Shown: positions 1 to 12,690 of the stretch, in pieces
How the letters are laid out: the number at the start of each line of letters is the position of its first letter
How positions within the stretch are numbered: position 1 is the first letter of the stretch
Assembly (NCBI GenBank): GCA_017465405.1
Contig: JAFTWG010000001.1
Coordinates: forward strand, 126,261 to 190,260
Length of the DNA: 64,000 nt
Direction: 5' to 3'
Source: Alphaproteobacteria bacterium
GTDB taxonomy: Bacteria; Pseudomonadota; Alphaproteobacteria; RF32; CAG-239
Made by a program: the position numbers and the translations under genes
The notes under the pieces: model-generated
What the model was told of the DNA's origin: nothing
Databases searched by the model: none
Seen by the model: the letters and a program-made list of their open reading frames with translations, nothing else

Positions 1-198
1 TTTTTTTCCATAGAAGAAAATATACCCAATTTTCTATACTTTTGTGTTTATATGATATAATAAAAACAACAAAAATGCATGTATTTTAATATAAAAGAAC
101 TCAAATACCCCATTTTAATATCAATATAAACATTTTTTTTGCACATCTTGACATTTCGTTTTTTATGTGTTATATGTATATACAATAGGAGTAAGTGT

Positions 199-1467
199 AT
201 GTTATCATCTTTTAAAATTCAAAACTTTAAGTCTATTCTTGATTTGAATTTAGATTTCAAATTTGATGAAGGAAAAGCACCTAACGGATACAAAGAACTA
301 GATACTGTAGTATTTCTTGAGCCGAAAAGGAATAATAGGTATATTCCATGTTTATCTATATACGGAGCCAATGCTTCTGGCAAAACAAATATTATAAAAG
401 CCTTAGATACATTTAAAGCTATTATAACGTCTCGCATTGACAACCTATATATACCTAATAAAATCAATACTAAATATGTATCGACATTATTCGAACTATC
501 ATTTTTTATAAAAAATAAAGAATATACATATCTGGTAGAGTATAACAAAGATACAATTGTTTTAGAGTCTCTAAAAGAAAATAATGATATTATATTTGAA
601 ATTTCATTAAAAAAACAAAATCTTATAAAAGTTTCAGGTAAAGGATATACTGAGCAACGGTTAAAAGAAATTTTGGATGTAGAATGCTGTGATACTAATA
701 AAAATCAAAAAATAACCTTTTTAAATCGTATAGCCACGAACTATAGCGGATTAAATAAAATCATATCAGATGTATACAAAGCAATAAAGGAAGATATAGA
801 GATATACCCTATAAATATGTTTCCATTATCATTTGGAATGGAAAAACTGGCGGCTTCACAAGATTATAAAGCAATAAATGCATCATTCGAAAAAATTACA
901 TCATTGCTAAGAAAATTAGATATTGATATTGAGCGTATGCAACTAGATAGAAACACAACTAAACTTGCTCAACCTATAGATTTGCAATCACAACCCTATA
1001 GCATATCGATAAAAGATAATATTTTATCGGTAGATTATATCTACTCATACCATAAGGATATTGATGGTAATGAGGTTAAATTTAAATTTACAGAAGAATC
1101 TGAAGGTACTCAAATAATAGCAGGTTTATTAGGTATATTTTTATCAGCTTTAGATAGAGGAGCAACTCTTATTATTGATGAATTAGAACGTTCTTTGCAT
1201 CCCTTATTATTAACTGAGGTTGTCAGATTATTTAAAGACAAGAGATATAATCGTAAAAATGCACAATTAATATTTACTGCTCATAATACAGATATTTTAG
1301 ATGCTGATTTATTAAGAATTTCTGAAATTGGCGTTGTAAAGAAAAATGCTAATAAAGGAACTGTATTAACAAGAGTTTCTTCTTTTGAGGGAATTAGAAA
1401 TGTAACCAATTTCAGAAAACAATACCTAAATGGTGCTTTCTCTGGTATTCCGCACCCTTATATATAA
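199..1467 (+). CDS. AAA/ABC-type ATPase, AbiLi-like (AAA_21 family); track ORF begins at 139 but the ATG at 199 has an AGGAG RBS
   Basis: Walker A 'GANASGKTN', Walker B 'LIIDELERSLHP', H-loop-like 'FTAHN'. N-terminus 'FKIQNFKSI' is typical of AAA_15/21 starts. An RloB-like gene follows immediately. Confidence 0.6.
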   Translation: MLSSFKIQNFKSILDLNLDFKFDEGKAPNGYKELDTVVFLEPKRNNRYIPCLSIYGANASGKTNIIKALDTFKAIITSRIDNLYIPNKINTKYVSTLFELSFFIKNKEYTYLVEYNKDTIVLESLKENNDIIFEISLKKQNLIKVSGKGYTEQRLKEILDVECCDTNKNQKITFLNRIATNYSGLNKIISDVYKAIKEDIEIYPINMFPLSFGMEKLAASQDYKAINASFEKITSLLRKLDIDIERMQLDRNTTKLAQPIDLQSQPYSISIKDNILSVDYIYSYHKDIDGNEVKFKFTEESEGTQIIAGLLGIFLSALDRGATLIIDELERSLHPLLLTEVVRLFKDKRYNRKNAQLIFTAHNTDILDADLLRISEIGVVKKNANKGTVLTRVSSFEGIRNVTNFRKQYLNGAFSGIPHPYI

Positions 1468-1478
1468 GGATAGAAAAA

Positions 1479-2057
1479 ATGAATTATCCCAAGAATGTAT
1501 ACATTATTATATGCGAAGGTCCTTCAGAAAAAGCGTATTTGCAAGAACTTAATCGCTATCTAGAAGATAATGATTATCCAGTTACAATCGTCCCCAAAAC
1601 AATAAACAATGGGCATTTTAAGCCTGCTCAAATAAAATTTAATGAAGTTAAAAAGCAAAATCCTAAAGATATCATTTATATTTGGGTTGATAAGGATACT
1701 TATATTAGGAATGATGAAGGCGATGGGGAAAAATATAATAAAAAGCCTAAGAATATTCCCGATTTTCATTTTAATTATCATAATTTTGAAGACTTTTTAG
1801 CTATGCATATGCCTGATGATATTTTATCTAATTGGCAAGAAATATGTAGAAAAAAGAACCATTTTAACAAACCTTTACATGCAAATATTTACGAACCATT
1901 ATATAAGCAAAACATTATTAATGATTATGAAAAGGGTTCTATGCCTTTTCCAATAACAAAAGAACAAATTATCAATGCATTAAAAAATCAAAAAGATACC
2001 TCCGTCTTATTTAAGAGTGATTTTTTAAATTTATTAGATGATTTGATAAAAAAATAA
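1479..2057 (+). CDS. RloB/AbiLii-like Toprim-superfamily protein, partner of the upstream ATPase
   Basis: N-terminal 'IIICEGPSEKAYL' matches the RloB CEGxTE-type motif. A downstream acidic 'IWVDKD' is consistent with Toprim DxD. It lies 11 bp after the ATPase stop. Confidence 0.5.
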   Translation: MNYPKNVYIIICEGPSEKAYLQELNRYLEDNDYPVTIVPKTINNGHFKPAQIKFNEVKKQNPKDIIYIWVDKDTYIRNDEGDGEKYNKKPKNIPDFHFNYHNFEDFLAMHMPDDILSNWQEICRKKNHFNKPLHANIYEPLYKQNIINDYEKGSMPFPITKEQIINALKNQKDTSVLFKSDFLNLLDDLIKK

Positions 2058-2077
2058 TAAAAATTATAACAAAGTTA

Positions 2078-2383
2078 TTACATATACTTTCTAACCAAAC
2101 CTTGAATTTCAGCGGCAAGACCGGCAGCCTTAAGGAGTTTGTTATGTTTGTTGCTTTTATCCGTCATATTAAAATATGCATATAGTAACATATTTGAGAC
2201 TAAATCTGCCTTTTCCATAATCTCTTTGATAAGGTCTTCAAATGTGCCGTTATAGGCTTCGGATAAGATTTTATAACTTTTAATCTTTTTATGGTTTTGC
2301 TTCAAAAACTCGTGCAAACCGTTAATATTATTGAAGTTTTTATATCCTTTGCGATTTGTAATTGTCTCAATCAACACCTTCAT
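2078..2383 (-). CDS. hypothetical protein (101 aa)
   Basis: ORF with no recognisable motif; transcribed divergently from the 2531 ORF. Confidence 0.3.
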   Translation of the reverse strand: MKVLIETITNRKGYKNFNNINGLHEFLKQNHKKIKSYKILSEAYNGTFEDLIKEIMEKADLVSNMLLYAYFNMTDKSNKHNKLLKAAGLAAEIQGLVRKYM

Positions 2384-2530
2384 ATCATGTCCTTTTGCTT
2401 TATAAAGGTATTTATGGATTTATATGTCAGATATTGTCGTAATAAAAAGCAATAATATCTAAAATCGCTTGATTTTAAGAATATTATTCAGTTTAATAAA
2501 AATATAATCAACTGACTAGGAAAATAAGCA

Positions 2531-3379
2531 ATGAGTATAGAAGACGAGATTAAAGCCTCTAAAGATTATTTGTTAACATTTGTTAGAGAAGATATAAAAA
2601 TACCAATACTTACTATTGATAATGTTGCCAGAGTTGAAGCAATGATACAAGTAGATTCAAGATATTCTAATAATAGAGATGAATATAATGGAGAGACTTC
2701 TTCAAATTTTTTTCATAAATTAAAAGAAATATTAAAAGATAAAGAAGAATTAAAAGATAATGAAAACACTTTAGAGACTTGTATTTATCAAATAGTACGC
2801 ACAATAGATAAGGAAAACAGCACTCATTTAAATTCAAATATAAGAGCAGAGGATGCTAAAGGTGATAATATAAAAAAAACAGGAAGGTACCTAATAGCAG
2901 ATAAAATCCTGCAGTTTAATAAAAAACGTTTTCTGGAGCATTTAACAAATCCCGACAAAGCATTAAAAGAAGATGGTCTTTTTCGAATAATTGAAATAAG
3001 TGGCGGACGTAAAAATACTTCTTTTGCCAGTAAATTTTGTCATTATGCATGTTTTAACTTATTTGATGATAAGAACAAAGACAATTATTCAATTTATGAC
3101 GCCGTAATAAGGATGGCTTTACCTATTTACATCAAGTGGCATAAAGTTACCGTTGAAAACATCAATTATAAGAATGAATATCGTAAAATAAGGAATGCTT
3201 TATGTAGAATAGATTATAAATTATATCAAACTATTGTTGATACTGTTCTAAAGGCTTCCGAAAGTGATATTAGTAGAAACGGATTTGACCATTTATTATG
3301 GTACTATTTCAAAGGAAAAAATGAGCAAGAAATAGAAGAAATCTACAACAGTATAGATACCATGAACAATTCTAAATAA
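2531..3379 (+). CDS. hypothetical protein (282 aa), possible abortive-infection-type protein
   Basis: Clean ORF with an upstream 'aggaaaataagcaATG' RBS and no family recognised; the role is suggested only by the island context. Confidence 0.35.
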   Translation: MSIEDEIKASKDYLLTFVREDIKIPILTIDNVARVEAMIQVDSRYSNNRDEYNGETSSNFFHKLKEILKDKEELKDNENTLETCIYQIVRTIDKENSTHLNSNIRAEDAKGDNIKKTGRYLIADKILQFNKKRFLEHLTNPDKALKEDGLFRIIEISGGRKNTSFASKFCHYACFNLFDDKNKDNYSIYDAVIRMALPIYIKWHKVTVENINYKNEYRKIRNALCRIDYKLYQTIVDTVLKASESDISRNGFDHLLWYYFKGKNEQEIEEIYNSIDTMNNSK

Positions 3380-3603
3380 TCCTAAATAAATTAGAATATT
3401 ATATTCTTAAATGGCCGTATTAAAATAAAAACGCCGCTAAATCAGTGGATTATTATAAAAAATATTGATTTTGCGGCTTGACAGCTGATTCTTGATATGT
3501 TTAAATCAAATCGAAGCGAGAGACATCGATAAGGTGTTTATCTCAAAAAAGTGAATTTATAACCAACTTGTCCCACTTTTAAGCGGACTAAAAGGAGATT
3601 TAA

Positions 3604-4137
3604 ATGAATACGAATATTTCGCATCCGAATATGGTGCAAGCGCTTATGAAAGCGTTATATCAAAACAATTTGCCCACAATTACAGATTTATTGAACCAAG
3701 GAGTTAATGTTAATCTACCATATAACGATAACGGCTGGACACCTTTTATGTGGGTATGTAAAGAGTTTTACGAAACTGATGTTGTCAAAATGTTCTTGGC
3801 TTATGGTGGCAATATTCATTCTCGCAACAAAGCCGGTGAAACTCCATTTATGATTGCTGCTAAAAAACGAAGCAATCCGGACACATTAGATGTTTTGCTT
3901 AAAGAAGGAAGCGATATTAACGCTCAAGATAATTCCGGAAATACTGCTCTTATGAAAGTAGTTCAACATCCGCAAGCAATGATGCGTTTATGTGTAATTG
4001 AGTTTCTTATCAAAAACGGTGCCGATGTTGATATTAAAAACAATGAAGGCAAAGATATTTGGGACTATGTCGATAATCATAAAGGCTTAAATGAGTTTAT
4101 CCTTTGTACATTGTTAGAGAGGTGTGCAAATGACTAA
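3604..4137 (+). CDS. ankyrin-repeat protein (177 aa)
   Basis: Repeats 'GWTPFMWVCKE', 'GETPFMIAAKK', 'GNTALMKVV' and 'KNGADVDIKNNEGKD' match the ANK consensus. RBS 'aaaggagatttaaATG'. Confidence 0.65.
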   Translation: MNTNISHPNMVQALMKALYQNNLPTITDLLNQGVNVNLPYNDNGWTPFMWVCKEFYETDVVKMFLAYGGNIHSRNKAGETPFMIAAKKRSNPDTLDVLLKEGSDINAQDNSGNTALMKVVQHPQAMMRLCVIEFLIKNGADVDIKNNEGKDIWDYVDNHKGLNEFILCTLLERCAND

Positions 4138-4456
4138 TATTCAAGAGATAGCAAGATTAAACGATGAGTTTAGAGCCAATCCATCAAAAGGAGTACTGAT
4201 TTTAACTCAAGGTATCAGATGTAATTCTTCAGAAGATATTGCAACCATTATCAACAAAGTGCGCAATTTCAATGACTTTAATAAAGACAATAATCCATAC
4301 GGTGAAAAAGATTTTGGAGCGTTTGAATTTAAGGGAAAGAAGATTTTCTGGAAAATTGATTATTATGACCGAGAACTTCTTTACATCTCGCCCGATGCCT
4401 GCAACCCAAAACTGACAAACCGTGTACTTACCATAATGTATGCAGATGAATACTAG
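4124..4456 (+). CDS. DUF3768-like small protein (110 aa); overlaps the ankyrin gene by 14 nt
   Basis: Motifs 'IARLNDEFR', 'NNPYGEKDFGAFEF' and 'FWKIDYYD', as remembered for DUF3768 proteins of plasmids and phages. Confidence 0.45.
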   Translation: MQMTNIQEIARLNDEFRANPSKGVLILTQGIRCNSSEDIATIINKVRNFNDFNKDNNPYGEKDFGAFEFKGKKIFWKIDYYDRELLYISPDACNPKLTNRVLTIMYADEY

Positions 4457-4464
4457 GAGGAAAT

Positions 4465-4617
4465 ATGAAATACGATATTATATGTTCCACAAGTGTAGAT
4501 GAACTGATTAAATGGGTAAACCAAAAACTAAAACAAGGTTGGAAACTTCAAGGCGGAATTGCCACAATGACACATCAACCGAGTTACACCGTGTTTTATC
4601 AAGCAATTATAAAATAA
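4465..4617 (+). CDS. DUF1737-like small protein (50 aa); below the 60-aa ORF-track cutoff
   Basis: Strong RBS 'taggaggaaatATG' 8 nt after the previous stop. 'ELIKWVNQKLKQGWKLQGGIATM...YTVFYQAIIK' resembles DUF1737 phage-associated proteins. Confidence 0.4.
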   Translation: MKYDIICSTSVDELIKWVNQKLKQGWKLQGGIATMTHQPSYTVFYQAIIK

Positions 4618-4687
4618 CAGAATATTTAAGACCGAAAGGCTGTGAGACTTATTTCCTTTCACTTACAGCCTTTCATAGGAGAAAGCC

Positions 4688-5272
4688 ATGACAAACAGTG
4701 AATTTGTAGATGATAAGAAAATTAAGGACATTTTGAACTTTATAAAATCAATGAAACATGCCGAGCAAATAAGAATGATGTTTCTTTGTTCCTTAAACGG
4801 TATGCGTTCAATCAATTTTGCATATTTGCAAGTAAAAGATGTTTTTAATGATGAGTTAAAAGTAAAAGACGTAATATGTCTTGATTATGATAAGAACAAA
4901 GGCAAGAACAAGTGCGAATATTATATGAACAGTCAATTAAAGAAAGAGTTTTGCGAATATTTGAAATATCTTCAAAACAAATGGGCTGATAAACTTTCGC
5001 CGGAAACATATCTGTTTACAAGCCAAAAACTCAATAAACCATATAACCGAGCATCAATAAGCAGGATGTTCAGTTCAATTTATAAAAAGTTCAACATTAA
5101 AGGGGCAAGCCATTTAGGCAGGCACTTGTTTGTATCAAAGTTGGTAAACTCCGGAGTTAATATCTGTTTGGTGCAAAAACTGGCTAATCATAAAAACATA
5201 TCAACTACACAGCATTACTTCAATTATAACCAACAAATGCTTGCCAATGCCGTAGAGAATGTGAAGATATGA
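4688..5272 (+). CDS. tyrosine recombinase (phage-integrase family), catalytic domain only; N-terminal core-binding domain absent
   Basis: Catalytic residues are seen: Arg in 'NGMRSINF', 'HLGRHLF' (HxxR) and 'HKNISTTQHY' (H...Y nucleophile). At 194 aa it is too short to include the SAM-like N-domain. Confidence 0.55.
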   Translation: MTNSEFVDDKKIKDILNFIKSMKHAEQIRMMFLCSLNGMRSINFAYLQVKDVFNDELKVKDVICLDYDKNKGKNKCEYYMNSQLKKEFCEYLKYLQNKWADKLSPETYLFTSQKLNKPYNRASISRMFSSIYKKFNIKGASHLGRHLFVSKLVNSGVNICLVQKLANHKNISTTQHYFNYNQQMLANAVENVKI

Positions 5273-5652
5273 TAACACTAGATAAAACGTGTTTTTTAGC
5301 GCATTGCGATTGGATTTATAACAATCGGTACAAGTTACAAAACAGACTTTGTGCTGATTTTGTGGTATCCGGATTTGTTATAAATGCTTTTGCCAGTCCG
5401 TATTACAGTTATTGTATCGATAAAATAACGGTCAGAAACTTAATCAAACTTTGGAACAATGGATTTGTTTATAATAATTTGCCATTAATCCATTACAGCC
5501 AATCTTATGGTGACAACTCAACACATATTGCTTACATTGATAATGGAAACCTAATTAATCAAACATTCTTCTACAATGATGAACAAAAGTATATCCCGAC
5601 AAATGAAGTAAAACAGATTTTGAAAGATTTGAGAATAAGTGTCAATAAATGA
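5269..5652 (+). CDS. hypothetical protein (127 aa); overlaps the recombinase stop by 4 nt
   Basis: ATGA overlap suggests translational coupling; no motif recognised. Confidence 0.3.
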   Translation: MITLDKTCFLAHCDWIYNNRYKLQNRLCADFVVSGFVINAFASPYYSYCIDKITVRNLIKLWNNGFVYNNLPLIHYSQSYGDNSTHIAYIDNGNLINQTFFYNDEQKYIPTNEVKQILKDLRISVNK

Positions 5653-5749
5653 CATTTCGCAAATTTAATTAGTTGTCATCAAGATTATTTTTATCTATCA
5701 TCATCTTACAGCACAAAGAATAATAGATAAAGATGTTAATAGCAGAAAT

Positions 5750-6163
5750 ATGAAGGAATATAATATGACAACATATAGAAAAGTATATAAAGGATTAACA
5801 TTAGAGCAAAAATCTTTATTAAGAGATTTACTCGTTTATCAAATAAGTAAGTATGATATTCAGAATAACATATCTAAACGTAGTACAGCTGTACATTTTC
5901 TGCATGATATATATGAAGATGATTTAATAGCATTTGATAGTACTATGATAATGATGGATGACATAATTAAAATATGCAGAACTGTTCCAGAAAACGAAAG
6001 AGCAAATATTCAGAGGCAGTTATTGTTAAATTCTGATGACGGACTAGTAGGTATTTTATCAATTTACTCTAATGAAACAATAAATGGACTAAAGGAAATT
6101 TTATCTTCCAAAGATAATATTCATATGGCATCAACAAGTTCTGCATGCTGGAGACATATTTAA
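5750..6163 (+). CDS. hypothetical protein (137 aa)
   Basis: ORF only. Confidence 0.3.
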   Translation: MKEYNMTTYRKVYKGLTLEQKSLLRDLLVYQISKYDIQNNISKRSTAVHFLHDIYEDDLIAFDSTMIMMDDIIKICRTVPENERANIQRQLLLNSDDGLVGILSIYSNETINGLKEILSSKDNIHMASTSSACWRHI

Positions 6164-6400
6164 AACTATTAATTATCAAAATTCTCACCTCTCAAAATGT
6201 TAAACAATGTTTGAAATTCTAACAAAGTTTAACATTTTTATTTTACTCATAAGCCCTACCCTATAAAAACACTAGGAAAACTGTCTATTACAAAGAAAAT
6301 GTTAAAGAAGGAATATTCTTTAACATTTTTATTTTTTTGCTTGTAATATAATTTAAATTAGTATAATATGGATTATATTAAATAATATATGAGGTGGATT

Positions 6401-7801
6401 ATGGAATTTATCGGAAGAACGAAAGAGCTTAAAGATTTAGAGCAAGAATATAAAAATAAACATTCCTTTGTGGTTTTGTATGGTCGGCGCAGAATTGGAA
6501 AAACCGAACTGATTAAGCAATTTATTAAAGATAAACCTGCTCTTTATTTTTTGGCAACGGAAGAGGCTGAACCACAGTGTATGAAAAGATTTTCGGCATC
6601 TTTAGCAGAATTTACCAAACAAGAATATTTAAAAAATGCAAACTTTAACGATTGGATAGAATTGTTTAAGATTTTTGCCGATGTGCAAAATAACCAAACT
6701 AAGATATTGGTTTTAGATGAATTTCAATATTTGGTGAATACTAATCCTGCATTTACCTCTGTATTTCAAAAAGTTTGGGATGAAGTCTTATCAAAAAAGG
6801 ACATAATGGTTATCATCTGCGGTTCTTATATCAATATGATGACACGTCAAGTTTTATCTGAAAAAAGCCCTCTATATGGTCGCCGCACCGCACAAATAAG
6901 ATTAGCGCCACTATCGTTTTGTGAAATTCAAGAGCACTATGCAACAGTTCCTTTTGCCGAATTGGTAGAACAATATGCCGTTACCGGAGGTGTTCCGAAA
7001 TATATGGAATTTTTTGCCAACGACAGTACACTGATGGAAAACATTGCCAGAACAGTTCTGAATACGAACGGTTTTTTGTATGATGAACCGGCATTTTTGC
7101 TCAATAAGGAAGTTAAGGAACCGGTTAACTATTACTCCATAATGAAAGTTATTGCAGCTGAAAATCACAAACTATCGGAAATAGCTTCGGCAATGCAAGT
7201 AGAAAGTAACCGTTTAACACCATATTTGGAAACCTTGCAGGGTTTGTATTTGTTGGAAAAACGTGTTCCGGTAACAGAAAACAACCCGGAAAAAAGCCGT
7301 AAAGGTCTTTATGTTATGCGAGATATTTTTATGCGTTTTTGGTTTAAGTTTGTATTTCCTTACAAAGGAGAACTTGAACTGGATAACCTTAATTTTGTTT
7401 TAAGTAAGCTGAATGAACATTTTATTGATAATCATGTTGCTTTTGTTTATGAAGATATTTGCCGTAACATATTTGCCGAACTATGCAAAAAAAGACTGAT
7501 TGATTTTGTGCCGTCACGTATCGGTTCATATTGGGGTAAAAACGAAGAAATTGATTTGGTTGCCGTAGATGAAAGCAATAAGCGTATTTTTGCAGCGGAA
7601 TGCAAATATTACAAAGATGACAAACCGGTTGATGTAGGGGTTTTCGCAAAATTACAAGAAAAGTGCAAGACTAAAGATTTTTCCGGAAACGACATTACTT
7701 ACGGGCTATTCTCCAAGAGTGGTTTTACTAGCCGTTTAAAAGAAATTGCCGCCGGAAATGATAAATTAATATTAATTAACGGCGTAAAACTGGAAAAGTA
7801 A
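6401..7801 (+). CDS. ATP-binding protein, archaeal-type ATPase with DUF234 C-terminal domain
   Basis: Walker A 'LYGRRRIGKTELI', Walker B 'ILVLDEFQYL', and a C-terminal region typical of DUF234. RBS 'gaggtggattATG' at 6401; the track starts at 6389. Confidence 0.6.
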   Translation: MEFIGRTKELKDLEQEYKNKHSFVVLYGRRRIGKTELIKQFIKDKPALYFLATEEAEPQCMKRFSASLAEFTKQEYLKNANFNDWIELFKIFADVQNNQTKILVLDEFQYLVNTNPAFTSVFQKVWDEVLSKKDIMVIICGSYINMMTRQVLSEKSPLYGRRTAQIRLAPLSFCEIQEHYATVPFAELVEQYAVTGGVPKYMEFFANDSTLMENIARTVLNTNGFLYDEPAFLLNKEVKEPVNYYSIMKVIAAENHKLSEIASAMQVESNRLTPYLETLQGLYLLEKRVPVTENNPEKSRKGLYVMRDIFMRFWFKFVFPYKGELELDNLNFVLSKLNEHFIDNHVAFVYEDICRNIFAELCKKRLIDFVPSRIGSYWGKNEEIDLVAVDESNKRIFAAECKYYKDDKPVDVGVFAKLQEKCKTKDFSGNDITYGLFSKSGFTSRLKEIAAGNDKLILINGVKLEK

Positions 7802-8181
7802 CCTTGTATTTTCATATTAAAAATAATTTCAAGCATCGAGTAAACTTTTTATCAATTTAACTTGGTCTTTCATTGCCAATATTTCGCTGTAATGATTGAC
7901 AAGTACATTGTAAAGTTGAGCGGATTTTTCTTTTATTCCTGCGTCCTCCTGCCAGCCAGAGTTCAAAAGTCGTCAAAATGGCGATTTTTTCTTTTATATA
8001 CAAGCATTTAAGCCGGTTCGAAGATTAGCCACCAAATATACTATACCCCAGATAATCTTCGAACTAATTTTAGCAAGAATTTAACATTTTCAATGAGTTA
8101 TGAAGTTCAGCATATATTTAAAATTTTACTTTACATAATGACATCAATCATTTACTCTGAACATTATAGGAGAAAACTCAT

Positions 8182-9396
8182 ATGTTTACATTGTTAGAAT
8201 TATTCAAAAATATAAACACAACCAAGGCATATTTTTTAGGAGCATTGATAACAGCAAATGAATGCTATATACAGGATAATATAAAATATTGGTCCGTACC
8301 GATAAGACATAATCCTGGACAAGCAACTCCTCACGAACTAAAACAGCACTATAATTTCCTAAAAGTACTGTCTAGAAAGGTTAATGGAAATATTTTAACA
8401 TCTGATATTTTGGGAAATAAAATGGGATTTGCTTCAGGAAAGCAAGGTTTTGCTGTTTTATTTACAAGTGATTTAAAAACAAATTTATCATCAATATTAC
8501 AAGCATCTCAGGTAATATTAACAATGAATTCAGATATAAAAAGATCTTTTTTAATTGGTGTTTTTGATGGGAGATCTTCTCTGGATAAAAATAGTACAAC
8601 GGACGAAATACGAAATATAGCGGTTGATTGTGAAGATAAAGCTGGACATGATATTATTTCATCGATCTTGTCTGATTTTGGAATTACCCCATTAAATCAA
8701 AACGAATCTCGAGAAAGATTGGAAGGCGGTAGACCCAGAAAAAATCAGTTAAGAATTCCTAAAAAGTATGTCTCTGAGTTTGCGACCAATATTGGTTTTA
8801 TTTCTCCTCTGAGATTTAAAGCATTTAAAAATAGCTTTTCTGAAATAATTCCTTATATAAAGAATGAAGACTCTTTATTACCAGGTTTAAAAAGTCTTTC
8901 TTATACCCAGACAGAAGATACCATAGAAGAAAATAAACTTGATGATTTGGTTATAAAAAGCACTAATATTGATAATATTAATCCTATTCTCCATACTTAT
9001 TCAGGGATTGCCAAACCCAAACCTGAACCTATTGTCTCTAAAGGACGTAAATTATATGCAAGAAATCCTCAAACAGCAGTTAATGCTTTAACATTGGCAT
9101 CCTACAAGTGTGAAATTGATGGTAATCACTACACGTTTATTAGAAAGAAAAATAACAAACCCTACACAGAACCTCATCACTTAGTACCCATGGCGTTTTC
9201 TGAAAGATTTGATGTTTCTCTTGATGTAGAAGAAAATATTGTGTCCTTATGCAGTAACTGTCATAATTTTTTGCACTATGGACGTGATGCAAAAGAGCTG
9301 TTAAATATTCTTTACCCAAAACGAAAAAATATGCTAGCTAACGTAGGTATAGATATTGATATAGATGACTTGTATGAAATGTACAACTTAGATTAA
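8182..9396 (+). CDS. putative restriction endonuclease: N-terminal LAGLIDADG-like double motif plus C-terminal HNH nuclease
   Basis: C-terminal 'CEIDGNH...EPHHLVP...LCSNCHNFLH' is an HNH motif. The N-terminus carries 'AYFLGALITANEC' and 'SFLIGVFDGRSSL' about 105 aa apart, which is the LAGLIDADG spacing. It converges on and overlaps the m5C methyltransferase stop by 4 nt. Confidence 0.5.
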   Translation: MFTLLELFKNINTTKAYFLGALITANECYIQDNIKYWSVPIRHNPGQATPHELKQHYNFLKVLSRKVNGNILTSDILGNKMGFASGKQGFAVLFTSDLKTNLSSILQASQVILTMNSDIKRSFLIGVFDGRSSLDKNSTTDEIRNIAVDCEDKAGHDIISSILSDFGITPLNQNESRERLEGGRPRKNQLRIPKKYVSEFATNIGFISPLRFKAFKNSFSEIIPYIKNEDSLLPGLKSLSYTQTEDTIEENKLDDLVIKSTNIDNINPILHTYSGIAKPKPEPIVSKGRKLYARNPQTAVNALTLASYKCEIDGNHYTFIRKKNNKPYTEPHHLVPMAFSERFDVSLDVEENIVSLCSNCHNFLHYGRDAKELLNILYPKRKNMLANVGIDIDIDDLYEMYNLD

Positions 9397-10448
9397 TCTT
9401 CATTTAGGAGAATTGTTTCAGCTATTGCCTTTGCTAATAAAGGAGGAACGGCGTTACCGACTTGTAGCATCTGGTCCATTTTCTTTCCATAAAAAATAAA
9501 ATTATCTGGAAAAGACTGTAATCTTGCTGCTTCCCTAACAGTGAGACATCTATCCTGAAATGGCAAGGTAAATTGTCCTGATGCAGGGGTGTCAAAGCGA
9601 GTTGTTATTGTTCTTGAAAAACCTTTAGGATTCATTCGCGTCCATGTACCACTATAAATAGATTTTGTTTGTTGGTCTTTAGGTAAATCATTTTTAGTGC
9701 TAGTTAACGTAACTAATTTTAATCTATCTAAAGCTATTTTACTATGCTTTGTTGAGATATGATTCCATACTCCATCTGACTTTATCCTCATAAGTTTTTG
9801 GTAATCACTTTTGGGCTGTTGCGTATATGGAACAAATTCTAGACCTTCGCCTGATTTTAAGATTGGCAAATCAGATATAGCATCTTCTACACAAGTTACC
9901 ATATGATTAGTATTAGGTAGTCTGTACCTTAAGTCACTGCCTAATTTACCTAAAAAAACAGCGCGTCTTCTTATTTGAGGAACTCCAAAATCTTCAGCCT
10001 TTAATATTTTTACATCAATATAATATCCTAATTCACCAAAACTATGAATAATCTGTTCTTTAAAATATCCATTTTCTGCTGTTAAAATATTTGGAACATT
10101 TTCTAACACAAAAAACTTAGGCTTAACAACTGAAACAACTTCGACAAACTTTTTGAACATAAAATTACGTTCGTCGTTTAGTCCTATCCTTTTTCCTTTT
10201 TGTGAAAATCCCTGACATGGCGGTCCTCCCATGACAACATCAATCTGATCCACATATTTTGAAAACTCTTTTACTATATCTATATCTCTAATATCCCTAG
10301 AATCAACTATAGTATCTGGATGATTTTTTTTATAAGCATTTGCAATACTTTTATTATATTCATTAGCCCAAAGTACTTTAAATCCAGCTAATTCAAATCC
10401 TAAAGACAGACCGCCAACACCAGCAAACAGATCAATAGCTGTTTTCAC
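9393..10448 (-). CDS. DNA (cytosine-5)-methyltransferase
   Basis: Motif I 'DLFAGVGGLSLGF', motif IV 'GGPPCQGFS' and an 'ENV' motif. Confidence 0.85.
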   Translation of the reverse strand: MKTAIDLFAGVGGLSLGFELAGFKVLWANEYNKSIANAYKKNHPDTIVDSRDIRDIDIVKEFSKYVDQIDVVMGGPPCQGFSQKGKRIGLNDERNFMFKKFVEVVSVVKPKFFVLENVPNILTAENGYFKEQIIHSFGELGYYIDVKILKAEDFGVPQIRRRAVFLGKLGSDLRYRLPNTNHMVTCVEDAISDLPILKSGEGLEFVPYTQQPKSDYQKLMRIKSDGVWNHISTKHSKIALDRLKLVTLTSTKNDLPKDQQTKSIYSGTWTRMNPKGFSRTITTRFDTPASGQFTLPFQDRCLTVREAARLQSFPDNFIFYGKKMDQMLQVGNAVPPLLAKAIAETILLNED

Positions 10449-11176
10449 TTAAACCCTCCCAATTTTCTAGTTGCAATATCATAATATTGCTCTTCCAGCT
10501 CTATCCCGTAAAAGCGTCTTTTTGCCTTTAATGCAGCTAACCCTGTAGAACCACTTCCCATAAAAGGATCTAGTACCAAATCGTTCTCATTTGTTAGTAG
10601 CTTTATAAAATGAGATAAAATTTCTTCTGGTTTCTGCGTTGGATGTTTGCCTTCTTTTTGTTCTTTAGCACTAATAACAGCTGATTCTATATAATCATGA
10701 ACAATTTTGCCTTCATTATTGAAAGTACCTGTTTTTCCTTGATTTATAAAATAAATCCAAGCTTCTGTTGAATTGATAAAATGTAGATTCATATTTCTTG
10801 GCATAGGATTTTTTTTATGCCAAATTCCAGTGGTTTTATAATAGAAACCATATTTTTCAGCAATATGAATGATTGTTTCTACTCTTATAATCGACATAAA
10901 CATTATCATAGCGCCACGCTTTTTTAAAACTCTTGCGCTTTCTTGGAAGAATTTATTCATCAATTCCTCCCATTTATCAGCTGCGGCAAAATCCCAATTT
11001 GATGCTGAAAAATGGTTTTTCCTTAATGCTCCAAGGTTTGTTTCTCTATTTTTCATAAACAATCCAAGATTATAAGGAGGATCAGTAAGTATGAGATCAA
11101 CACTTCTATCTCGTATGTCATGCATTTCTGACACACAATCACCTAAACCTAAGACATATTCCTTTTCTTTAATCAT
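10445..11176 (-). CDS. DNA methyltransferase, beta-class N6-adenine/N4-cytosine
   Basis: 'LILTDPPYN' (motif IV) precedes 'DPFMGSGSTG' (motif I). There is a 4-nt ATGA overlap with the downstream m5C methyltransferase. Confidence 0.8.
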   Translation of the reverse strand: MIKEKEYVLGLGDCVSEMHDIRDRSVDLILTDPPYNLGLFMKNRETNLGALRKNHFSASNWDFAAADKWEELMNKFFQESARVLKKRGAMIMFMSIIRVETIIHIAEKYGFYYKTTGIWHKKNPMPRNMNLHFINSTEAWIYFINQGKTGTFNNEGKIVHDYIESAVISAKEQKEGKHPTQKPEEILSHFIKLLTNENDLVLDPFMGSGSTGLAALKAKRRFYGIELEEQYYDIATRKLGGFK

Positions 11177-11496: not shown

Positions 11497-11531
11497 CCAA
11501 GAAAAAAGTCGTCATTGTTGACGACTTTTTT
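11497..11531. terminator. hairpin 'aaaaagtcgtcattgttgacgactttttt', bidirectional terminator at the nhaA 3' end
   Basis: Perfect inverted repeat flanked by A- and T-runs. Confidence 0.5.
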
Positions 11532-12690
11532 TGATGTGTTCTTGCCATTGAAAAATGGCTGCTCCCCATAATGCCGATAGTAATGAGCCACATAAAATTC
11601 CTAATCTCACTTCTCCTTGCATATATTCCGGCAAAGACAATTTGCCCACAAACAAGGCCATTGTAAAACCTATACCGGCAATAGCTGAAACTCCATATAA
11701 GTCCGCCAATTTAACATCTTTGGGGAACGAAGCAATTCCTATTTTGATAAGCATCCATGTACTCATAAATATACCTATTTGCTTTCCAAAAAATAAACCG
11801 AATATAATCCCTAAAGTCAATGTATGAGTAAATGTTTCTAATGTTATTCCTCCTAAATATAACCCCGCAGATGCAAAAGCAAAAACCGGCAAAATAACAA
11901 AATCGACCCAAGGTTTTAATTTATGGGACAAAGCTTCTAAGGGAGAACTTTTTCTTAAATGAACTCTCATCGGATAGGCCATAGCGACAACAACACCCGA
12001 TATTGTTGTATGAATACCACCGTTTAGGAAACAATACCACAAAACAACTCCTAATATAAAATAAGGAATAAAATTCGTTATTTCCATTTTATTCAAGAAA
12101 TATAATGCAATACAGGTTAAACTTGCGTAGCCTAACAAATCAATGGAAACACCTTGATTATAGAATAAGGCAATAATTAAAATAGCGCCTAAATCATCAA
12201 ATATTGCAATTGCCAACAGAAATATTTTTACAGCCTGCGGAACACTTTTGCCTACCAACATTAAAATACAAACAGCAAAAGCAATATCGGTTGCGGTCGG
12301 AATAGCCCAGCCATTCATATACTGAGGAGAATTATTATTTAAAATTGCATAAATGATTGCAGGACACACAATCCCTCCGAGTGCCGCTAATGCCGGAACA
12401 ATAATTTGTTTTGCATCTGACAAAAATCCCTCTTTCATTTCTCTTTTTAGTTCTAAGCCAATTTGCAAAAAGAAAAACACCATCAAAACATCATTAATCC
12501 ACCACTCCAGAGAGCGGGAAAATTTTATATCTGCCAAACCTAAAAACAATTGCGTTTCCCAAAAATGGGATATTGGTTCACGCCACGGACTATTTGCTAA
12601 ACAGACCGAAGCAAACATTGACAAAATCATTAAAATTCCGCTGGAAACTTCACTGCTGAAAAAATTACTGATTTTTTGTTTAATATCCAT
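11512..12690 (-). CDS. nhaA: Na+/H+ antiporter NhaA
   Basis: Polytopic membrane protein with an NhaA-like N-terminus and core ('ANSPWREPISHFWETQLFLG', 'ATDIAFA', 'AIFDDLGAI'). Confidence 0.8.
   Translation of the reverse strand: MDIKQKISNFFSSEVSSGILMILSMFASVCLANSPWREPISHFWETQLFLGLADIKFSRSLEWWINDVLMVFFFLQIGLELKREMKEGFLSDAKQIIVPALAALGGIVCPAIIYAILNNNSPQYMNGWAIPTATDIAFAVCILMLVGKSVPQAVKIFLLAIAIFDDLGAILIIALFYNQGVSIDLLGYASLTCIALYFLNKMEITNFIPYFILGVVLWYCFLNGGIHTTISGVVVAMAYPMRVHLRKSSPLEALSHKLKPWVDFVILPVFAFASAGLYLGGITLETFTHTLTLGIIFGLFFGKQIGIFMSTWMLIKIGIASFPKDVKLADLYGVSAIAGIGFTMALFVGKLSLPEYMQGEVRLGILCGSLLSALWGAAIFQWQEHIKKSRQQ

Follow-up and report, generated by a model that had tools for sequence, protein, structure and literature searches.

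The restriction enzyme MnlI (CCTC 7/6) is a Type IIS enzyme with an HNH nuclease, accompanied by an N6-methyladenine (m6A) and a 5-methylcytosine (m5C) methyltransferase (PMC2441816, PMC4081073, PMC5714182). The HpyAVI methyltransferases of Helicobacter pylori are MnlI-like, are encoded by overlapping genes and methylate GAGG and CCTC (PMC3411764, PMC3597690, PMC5173035), and H. pylori 26695 was described as having no functional MnlI-type endonuclease (PMC3411764). In the LlaJI system, two methyltransferases for an asymmetric site are combined with McrBC-like subunits (PMC1459862). In this study a stretch of 64,000 nucleotides (nt) from an Alphaproteobacteria bacterium (contig JAFTWG010000001.1, hereafter the window) was analysed, and the restriction-modification (R-M) module at 8182-11176 was compared with these systems. 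The module is very probably a Type IIS-like R-M system of the MnlI/HpyAVI kind, in which a LAGLIDADG-type domain would serve as reader and an HNH domain as cutter.

Three intact open reading frames (ORFs) make up the module, and their arrangement was exactly that given in an earlier note on this DNA: there is a 4-nt overlap between the genes of the two methyltransferases, and the gene for a 404-amino-acid (aa) endonuclease converges on the m5C methyltransferase gene. The parts of the module are as follows.

8182..9396, + strand: endonuclease gene, 404 aa, intact ORF
8182..8916, + strand: N-terminal DNA-recognition domain (aa 1-245), predicted pseudo-dimeric and catalytically dead LAGLIDADG fold
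8224..8262, + strand: LAGLIDADG-like motif 1, KAYFLGALITANE (aa 15-27), with Ala25 at the catalytic-equivalent position
8548..8586, + strand: LAGLIDADG-like motif 2, FLIGVFDGRSSLD (aa 123-135), with Arg131 at the catalytic-equivalent position
8917..9033, + strand: linker (aa 246-284), one long helix and a variable segment
9034..9393, + strand: EcoKMcrA-type HNH nuclease module at the C-terminus (aa 285-404)
9393-9396, no strand: TTAA common to both convergent stop codons (TAA on each strand), read from the sequence
9393..10448, - strand: C5-cytosine DNA methyltransferase gene, 351 aa, PF00145 and TIGR00675
10445..11176, - strand: putative beta-class N6-adenine DNA methyltransferase gene, 243 aa, PF01555

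An exact match to the endonuclease was MBQ8784533.1, which is annotated as "hypothetical protein" and comes from an uncultured Alphaproteobacteria metagenome-assembled genome; the identical protein was present on 5 contigs of a public collection. A total of 78 full-length homologs were revealed (35-64% identity), and an alignment of 52 full-length homologs within the same range of identity (A1) was used for the analysis of conservation. No family for the endonuclease was found in NCBIfam besides a spurious match to an intein-containing RNA polymerase subunit, and a HMMER family profile searched against the PDB sequences gave the McrA HNH domain only, with no LAGLIDADG match. Since the kinship with LAGLIDADG proteins could not be detected by HMMER, structure comparison was required. 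The AlphaFold2 model built on A1 had a predicted local distance difference test score (pLDDT) of 90.7 and a predicted template modelling (TM) score of 0.90. In this model aa 13-220 were arranged as alpha-beta-beta-alpha-beta-beta-alpha in two copies, packed through the motif helices, and Foldseek matched the model to I-DmoI (E 1.7e-6, target-normalised TM 0.62). The LAGLIDADG fold, for which structure prediction had been named as the check in the earlier note, was thereby borne out.

The fold, the topology and the spacing of about 105 residues between the motif helices are those of the homing endonucleases I-DmoI, PI-SceI, PI-PfuI and I-Tsp061I; two motifs about 105 aa apart had been proposed for the endonuclease, and 107 aa was measured. 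The consensus of A1 was AYFLGAI.SA.E for motif 1 (aa 15-27) and FL.GAFDGRSS.D for motif 2 (aa 123-135), with A16 and G20 invariant in the former and G126, D129, G130 and D135 in the latter. Unlike in LAGLIDADG homing endonucleases, the catalytic Asp or Glu ending each motif helix was replaced (A25, R131). In register with I-CreI (LAGFVDGD20G) and I-DmoI (D21, E117), A25 and R131 stand in the catalytic places, and D129 takes the first Asp position of LAGLI-D-ADG, which is structural and non-catalytic. Among 144 relatives of all architectures, position 25 was A, S, L, C, G or N, and position 131 held R in 132 relatives and K in 9 others; an acidic residue occurred at neither position in any of the 144. 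The loss of the catalytic Asp from motif 1 had been recognised before, and this part stood, while the implied limit to motif 1 did not, since the acid is also missing from motif 2. Thus the scaffold is predicted to be catalytically dead, like that of WhiA. With positions 25 and 131 never acidic and the HNH residues invariant, the LAGLIDADG part would be a DNA reader instead of a nuclease, and the DNA-recognition scaffold suggested earlier is the best reading of this domain. The invariant polar residues H43, N44, K87, D135, D149, N174, R186, Q189 and R191 were located on or beside the predicted beta-strands. In LAGLIDADG proteins these strands form the DNA-reading saddle, and by analogy the invariant saddle residues may contact DNA here.

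The closest structural match overall was WhiA, a non-catalytic LAGLIDADG DNA-binding protein, with 11-14% identity in the structural alignment. WhiA is a regulator of sporulation and cell division which joins a degenerate LAGLIDADG domain to a C-terminal helix-turn-helix and works in transcription, whereas the endonuclease of the window carries an HNH nuclease and belongs to an R-M operon. The Pfam families of WhiA had no match in the endonuclease. The window gene also differs from those of homing endonucleases in lying outside any intron or intein and in being tied to two methyltransferases, and its expected target is a short site, compared with 14-40 bp for homing endonucleases.

The linker was composed of a helix (aa 246-263) followed by coil in the model, and it was the most length-variable stretch of A1. 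The C-terminal HNH motif claimed from the letters was confirmed by phmmer against the PDB sequences, in which aa 284-380 matched the HNH domain of EcoKMcrA (E 3e-12). The HNH core covers aa 310-366 and the motif core aa 330-365, with C310, H316, C357 and C360 as probable zinc ligands and H333, N352 and H361 as catalytic residues. E330, H332, H333, N352, C357, C360, H361 and H365 were invariant in A1, so judged by its residues the HNH site is intact. The homologous HNH domain is a likeness to Type IV enzymes of the EcoKMcrA and ScoMcrA types; these recognise modified DNA through NEco, SRA or sulphur-binding readers and lack a cognate methyltransferase, whereas the window enzyme has a LAGLIDADG-like reader and an obligatory methyltransferase pair. 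Many proteins with the same HNH module were found to carry SRA-type domains (PF18491) or to stand alone without methyltransferases.

The HNH module was also met on plasmids. Matches by tblastn occurred on more than 1400 plasmids, mostly enterobacterial; among the matches listed were the C-terminal partial kind, and those listed were only stand-alone HNH proteins covering aa ~248-404. One of them, a 302-aa stand-alone protein on the Escherichia coli plasmid NZ_CP129241.1 (L098:3773-4681), was aligned by HHalign to aa 248-404 (E 3e-44). Its gene adjoins those of an AAA ATPase and a UvrD-like helicase, and a methyltransferase was absent from this locus. A plasmid match extending to aa 182 was not borne out by HHalign.

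Both methyltransferases were of the classes claimed for them, with the expected motifs in place. The m5C enzyme matched PF00145 (E 5e-74) and TIGR00675, with PCQ at aa 77-79 (10212-10220) and ENV at aa 116-118 (10095-10103), and it also has QxRxR and GNAVPP motifs. The beta-class enzyme matched PF01555 (E 7e-43), with DPPY at aa 32-35 (11072-11083) before FMGSG, its FxGxG motif, at aa 205-209 (10550-10564). The closest solved relative of the latter was M1.HpyAVI (5hek, E 7e-34), with CcrM next. Both of these are adenine methyltransferases, so N6-adenine is the likely target.

The reader domain was inherited together with the methyltransferase pair. For this comparison 86 related loci were used, and those with the N-terminal domain were counted only when enough flanking DNA was available. 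Orthologs of both methyltransferases (57-83% identity) were present in 9 of the 9 loci with the N-terminal domain, and in none of the 73 loci having only the HNH module (Fisher p 3e-12). The gene order was convergent in the window, L001 and L007, and divergent with a small helix-turn-helix gene between in L003-L006, L009, L019 and L045. L009 holds the complete module of a cultured isolate, Blautia wexlerae MSK.20.46, and its endonuclease was 38% identical to that of the window. The methyltransferases were more conserved than the reader domain, which is expected if the three proteins keep one specificity and restriction endonucleases drift faster. Thus this is a conserved and genuine R-M module with an m5C and a beta-class N6-adenine methyltransferase.

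The reader was not restricted to one kind of nuclease. When aa 1-245 were searched against 1.84 billion representative proteins, only 98 relatives were obtained. Besides the fusion to McrA-type HNH, which is the architecture of the window protein, the reader was fused to a different small HNH domain (P0455 and P0457), or was C-terminal to a PLD nuclease domain in proteins of about 465 aa (P0443, P0449 and P0462), which is the domain order of BfiI. P0462 was above the Pfam LAGLIDADG_3 cut-off (29.6 bits). Stand-alone reader proteins of 217-252 aa were found as well. In L092 and L093 the PLD fusion gene is followed by N6_N4 and m5C methyltransferase genes. In L094 (4359-9473) a 252-aa stand-alone reader gene comes before McrB-like and McrC genes and a methyltransferase pair, and in L095-L097 (L095:2701-7699) a 217-aa reader gene lies between the methyltransferase pair and AAA_5 and RE_LlaJI genes. 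All six of these further loci (L092-L097) carry N6_N4 and m5C methyltransferase genes, which brings the pair to 15 of 15 loci with the reader domain, and the methyltransferases of L092-L094 were about 55% identical to those of the window. The form FD[GST][RK] of motif 2 was kept in all these proteins. L094 and L095 resemble LlaJI-like systems in which a subunit of its own would read the DNA; unlike in LlaJI, the reader of these McrBC/LlaJI-type loci is a separate protein of 217-252 aa and not the N-terminus of the McrB-like subunit. The recurrence of the reader and the methyltransferase pair with changing nucleases argues strongly, by comparison, for the LAGLIDADG-derived domain as the specificity element matched to the methyltransferases, with the nuclease interchangeable. 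This resembles BfiI, LlaJI and EcoRII, where one recognition fold is also used with different nucleases, B3-like there and LAGLIDADG-derived here.

The MnlI and HpyAVI systems share with the window a beta-class m6A methyltransferase gene (232-243 aa) overlapping an m5C gene (351-355 aa), and an endonuclease of about 405 aa whose C-terminal part is an HNH domain. The m6A methyltransferase of the window was about 38% identical to M1.HpyAVI in local alignment, and over 348 aa the m5C methyltransferase shared 43% identity (E 1e-96) with the M2.HpyAVI ortholog of H. pylori. The H. pylori loci were reached through the M1.HpyAVI protein, and in two of them (L087 and L090) a 387-407-aa "HNH endonuclease" gene lies directly before the m5C gene and overlaps it. 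The R.HpyAV (CCTTC) system was absent from the H. pylori strains retrieved. By BLAST the window and H. pylori endonucleases were aligned in the HNH region only. By HHalign, A1 was aligned with the 407-aa H. pylori endonuclease from residue 7 to 396 (97.6%, E 3.7e-12, 352 columns), and the alignment takes in FNLGVLLS (motif 1), FLSGFFESRGSID (motif 2) and the R..Q.R strand (R186/Q189/R191). The N-terminal domain alone gave 76% (E 2e-5) with the same endonuclease, and A1 gave 96.8% with that of Ligilactobacillus aviarius. In pairwise comparison the window and H. pylori proteins were 25% (endonuclease), 42% (m5C) and 34% (m6A, global) identical, and those of H. pylori and L. aviarius 32%, 55% and 66%.

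Differences from HpyAVI were also observed. The genes of H. pylori are co-directional in the order endonuclease, m5C, m6A, while in the window m6A and m5C are followed by a convergent endonuclease gene, and the endonucleases are only about 25% identical. In the earlier note the domain fusion was not recognised among characterised Type II enzymes, but the endonuclease of the HpyAVI operon aligns end to end, and the fusion is probably not absent among them. The earlier note had taken a match to a characterised REBASE family as evidence against its reading, and because of this end-to-end alignment such a match exists in part, at only about 25% identity. We conclude that the window system belongs to a sister clade of the HpyAVI/MnlI-type systems with the same architecture, in which the link to R.MnlI itself (AAU87367.1), drawn from the literature, is a putative one, and that it is a new and divergent MnlI-like Type IIS R-M member. 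A CCTC/GAGG-like site is possible, as suggested by the homology of the methyltransferases and the common reader residues.

In L. aviarius (L088:2654-8475), AAA_5 and RE_LlaJI genes come directly after an HpyAVI-like operon (endonuclease, m5C, m6A), and one methyltransferase pair may serve two different nucleases there.

The working of the system could be as follows. The site would be short and asymmetric, and each of its strands would be protected by one methyltransferase: one strand would receive N6-methyladenine from the beta-class enzyme, and its complement 5-methylcytosine from the other enzyme. The region of aa 1-245 would be a single-chain pseudo-dimeric LAGLIDADG scaffold, unable to cut with Ala25 and Arg131 in the catalytic places, and its beta-sheet saddle with the invariant polar residues would read the unmethylated site. 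The helical linker (aa 246-284) would tether and position the HNH (beta-beta-alpha-metal) domain, which as the only nuclease would probably cut a few bases to one side of the site, at a constant spacing, as MnlI does. A double-strand cut would probably be made through transient dimerisation mediated by the HNH domains; EcoKMcrA was reported to dimerise in this way (Czapinska et al. 2018). No terminator-like site was found between the endonuclease and m5C methyltransferase genes, and the same convergent order with overlapping TTAA stops was present in the closest relatives, L001 (L001:3490-3493) and L007. A convergent overlap of this kind without a terminator may let transcriptional interference control the genes, and in the window it may delay the expression of the endonuclease.

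Some results weigh against this reading. The Pfam LAGLIDADG_3 match on aa 119-205 of the endonuclease (E 6e-4, 20.4 bits) was under the cut-off of 22.5, and the Pfam HNH match (E 3e-3) was also under the curated cut-off. The placing of A25 and R131 in the catalytic register relies on aligned motifs and on HHalign, which matched an I-DmoI sequence only weakly, and not on superposed coordinates. The model of the H. pylori endonuclease was of low confidence (pLDDT 59.7), and it is not independent evidence because the window family sat in its alignment. The four residues P41, N111, K165 and T166, which are implicated in the substrate choice of M1.HpyAVI (PMC5173035), all differ in the window enzyme, and therefore the site may differ from GAGG. 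In addition, CCTC/GAGG was not depleted in the window (observed/expected 1.0), which is uninformative rather than contrary; in the k-mer test on the window, CCTC, CCTTC and GGTGA were without meaningful depletion and only palindromes were depleted. As to the first of these points, structure prediction and conservation together turn the weak LAGLIDADG and HNH sequence signals into solid ones.

Among other explanations, the same R-M system might cut inside its site or right next to it (Type IIP- or IIA-like), or nick one strand. There is one HNH site per chain, and nicking is known for some HNH enzymes (PMC3017599, PMC3592412), but a recognition domain, a linker of about 40 residues and a nuclease together with methyltransferases of two chemistries form the Type IIS pattern of MnlI and HpyAV/Hin4II (PMC4081073, PMC2816704). 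The fusion of the same reader to a PLD nuclease in the BfiI order also speaks for cutting at a distance, as does the HNH-domain dimerisation reported for EcoKMcrA, and a close cut or nick is unlikely. It is very unlikely that the endonuclease is an inactive remnant and that the methyltransferases work alone in an epigenetic role. Such a state has been reported for HpyAVI in H. pylori 26695, a strain described as lacking a MnlI-type endonuclease or having a non-functional one (PMC3411764). Truncated members do exist in the clade, but the window ORF is of full length with all invariant residues of both domains kept, and the identical protein is found on the 5 contigs mentioned above.

A Type IV, McrA-like modification-dependent enzyme, with the LAGLIDADG-like domain sensing modified bases and the methyltransferases unrelated or orphan, would suit an HNH module that is closest to EcoKMcrA and is shared by many proteins with SRA-type domains or without methyltransferases. 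Gene context led to its rejection: the pair is present in all 15 reader loci across convergent, divergent and co-directional orders and four effector types, and the HpyAVI/MnlI relatives are classical R-M systems. A methylation-dependent nuclease beside two active-looking methyltransferases would also be toxic to its own cell unless the sites differ, and this explanation is highly improbable. Least probable of all is a homing endonuclease that stands by itself, or another selfish mobile nuclease, with LAGLIDADG cutting a long target with or without the HNH. I-DmoI, PI-SceI and PI-PfuI are indeed the best fold matches, and the module lies in a mobile/defence island with recombinase genes, but the canonical catalytic acids are missing in 144 of 144 relatives, the closest overall structural match is the non-catalytic WhiA, and the gene is never within an intron or intein and always linked to methyltransferases. 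Thus the Type IIS-like system with a LAGLIDADG reader and an HNH cutter is preferred.

The nuclease folds HNH, GIY-YIG and PD-(D/E)XK occur in both restriction enzymes and homing endonucleases, whereas the LAGLIDADG fold has generally been regarded as confined to homing endonucleases, maturases and WhiA. In a full-text literature search, with subscription journals including the MnlI domain study outside its scope, LAGLIDADG was never linked to MnlI, HpyAVI, Type IIS recognition domains or BfiI-like and LlaJI-like systems. It was also unmentioned in two large Type II classifications (PMC4081073, PMC2441816) and in a survey of His-Me finger nucleases. The LAGLIDADG-derived reader is apparently unreported.

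Taken jointly, a wider proposal is put forward tentatively, as something that may well be wrong: a dead LAGLIDADG scaffold would be a portable reader of short R-M sites, kept as a cassette with the m6A and m5C methyltransferase pair, recombined with at least three unrelated effectors, and probably also forming the DNA-binding domain of MnlI and HpyAVI. The effectors meant are HNH (two subtypes), the PLD nuclease and the GTPase-nuclease pairs of McrBC/LlaJI type, in which the reader is a separate subunit. If the fold assignment is true, the MnlI-like enzymes, an old commercial family, would gain a fold for their recognition domain, and a scaffold of 14-40-bp targets could be trimmed to a short asymmetric site. 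There would also be a clean natural case of a cassette of reader and methyltransferases plugged into HNH, PLD and McrBC-type cutters. If the reader also forms the DNA-binding domain of MnlI and HpyAVI, restriction enzymes would have their first documented case of the LAGLIDADG homing-endonuclease fold. Such scaffolds have already been engineered as meganucleases, and for enzyme engineers a LAGLIDADG domain which only reads and works with a tethered nuclease could be of interest.

For the host genome, the module is an ordinary strain-variable defence module within a mobile island. It lies at the edge of a variable defence/mobile island (window 139-7801), in which the following genes were identified.

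139-1467: AAA_21 ATPase, with a 192-aa partner at 1479-2057
3604-4137: ankyrin-repeat protein
4124-4456: DUF3768 protein
4688-5272: short tyrosine recombinase, catalytic domain only
6389-7801: DUF234/ATPase_2 protein with a weak Mrr_cat-like C-terminus

A terminator-like hairpin (7965-7989) was located after the DUF234 gene and upstream of the endonuclease gene, and another (11501-11532) where nhaA ends (3'), a short way past the 5' (upstream) end of the methyltransferase operon, so that the module is flanked by the two. From 11512 on core genes were found again, including nhaA and a gene for a fadL-like outer-membrane protein. A DUF3768 gene was near the R-M module both in the window (4124-4456) and in the related locus L001 (1305-1622), which may reflect a common mobile-element backbone. 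In the whole window (1-64000) palindromes were strongly avoided, with observed/expected ratios of 0.20 for GATC (z -19), 0.48 for CATG, 0.43 for GGCC, 0.45 for CTAG, 0.37 for GATATC and 0.34 for GAATTC, and this avoidance suggests pressure by other Type IIP restriction systems in the lineage.

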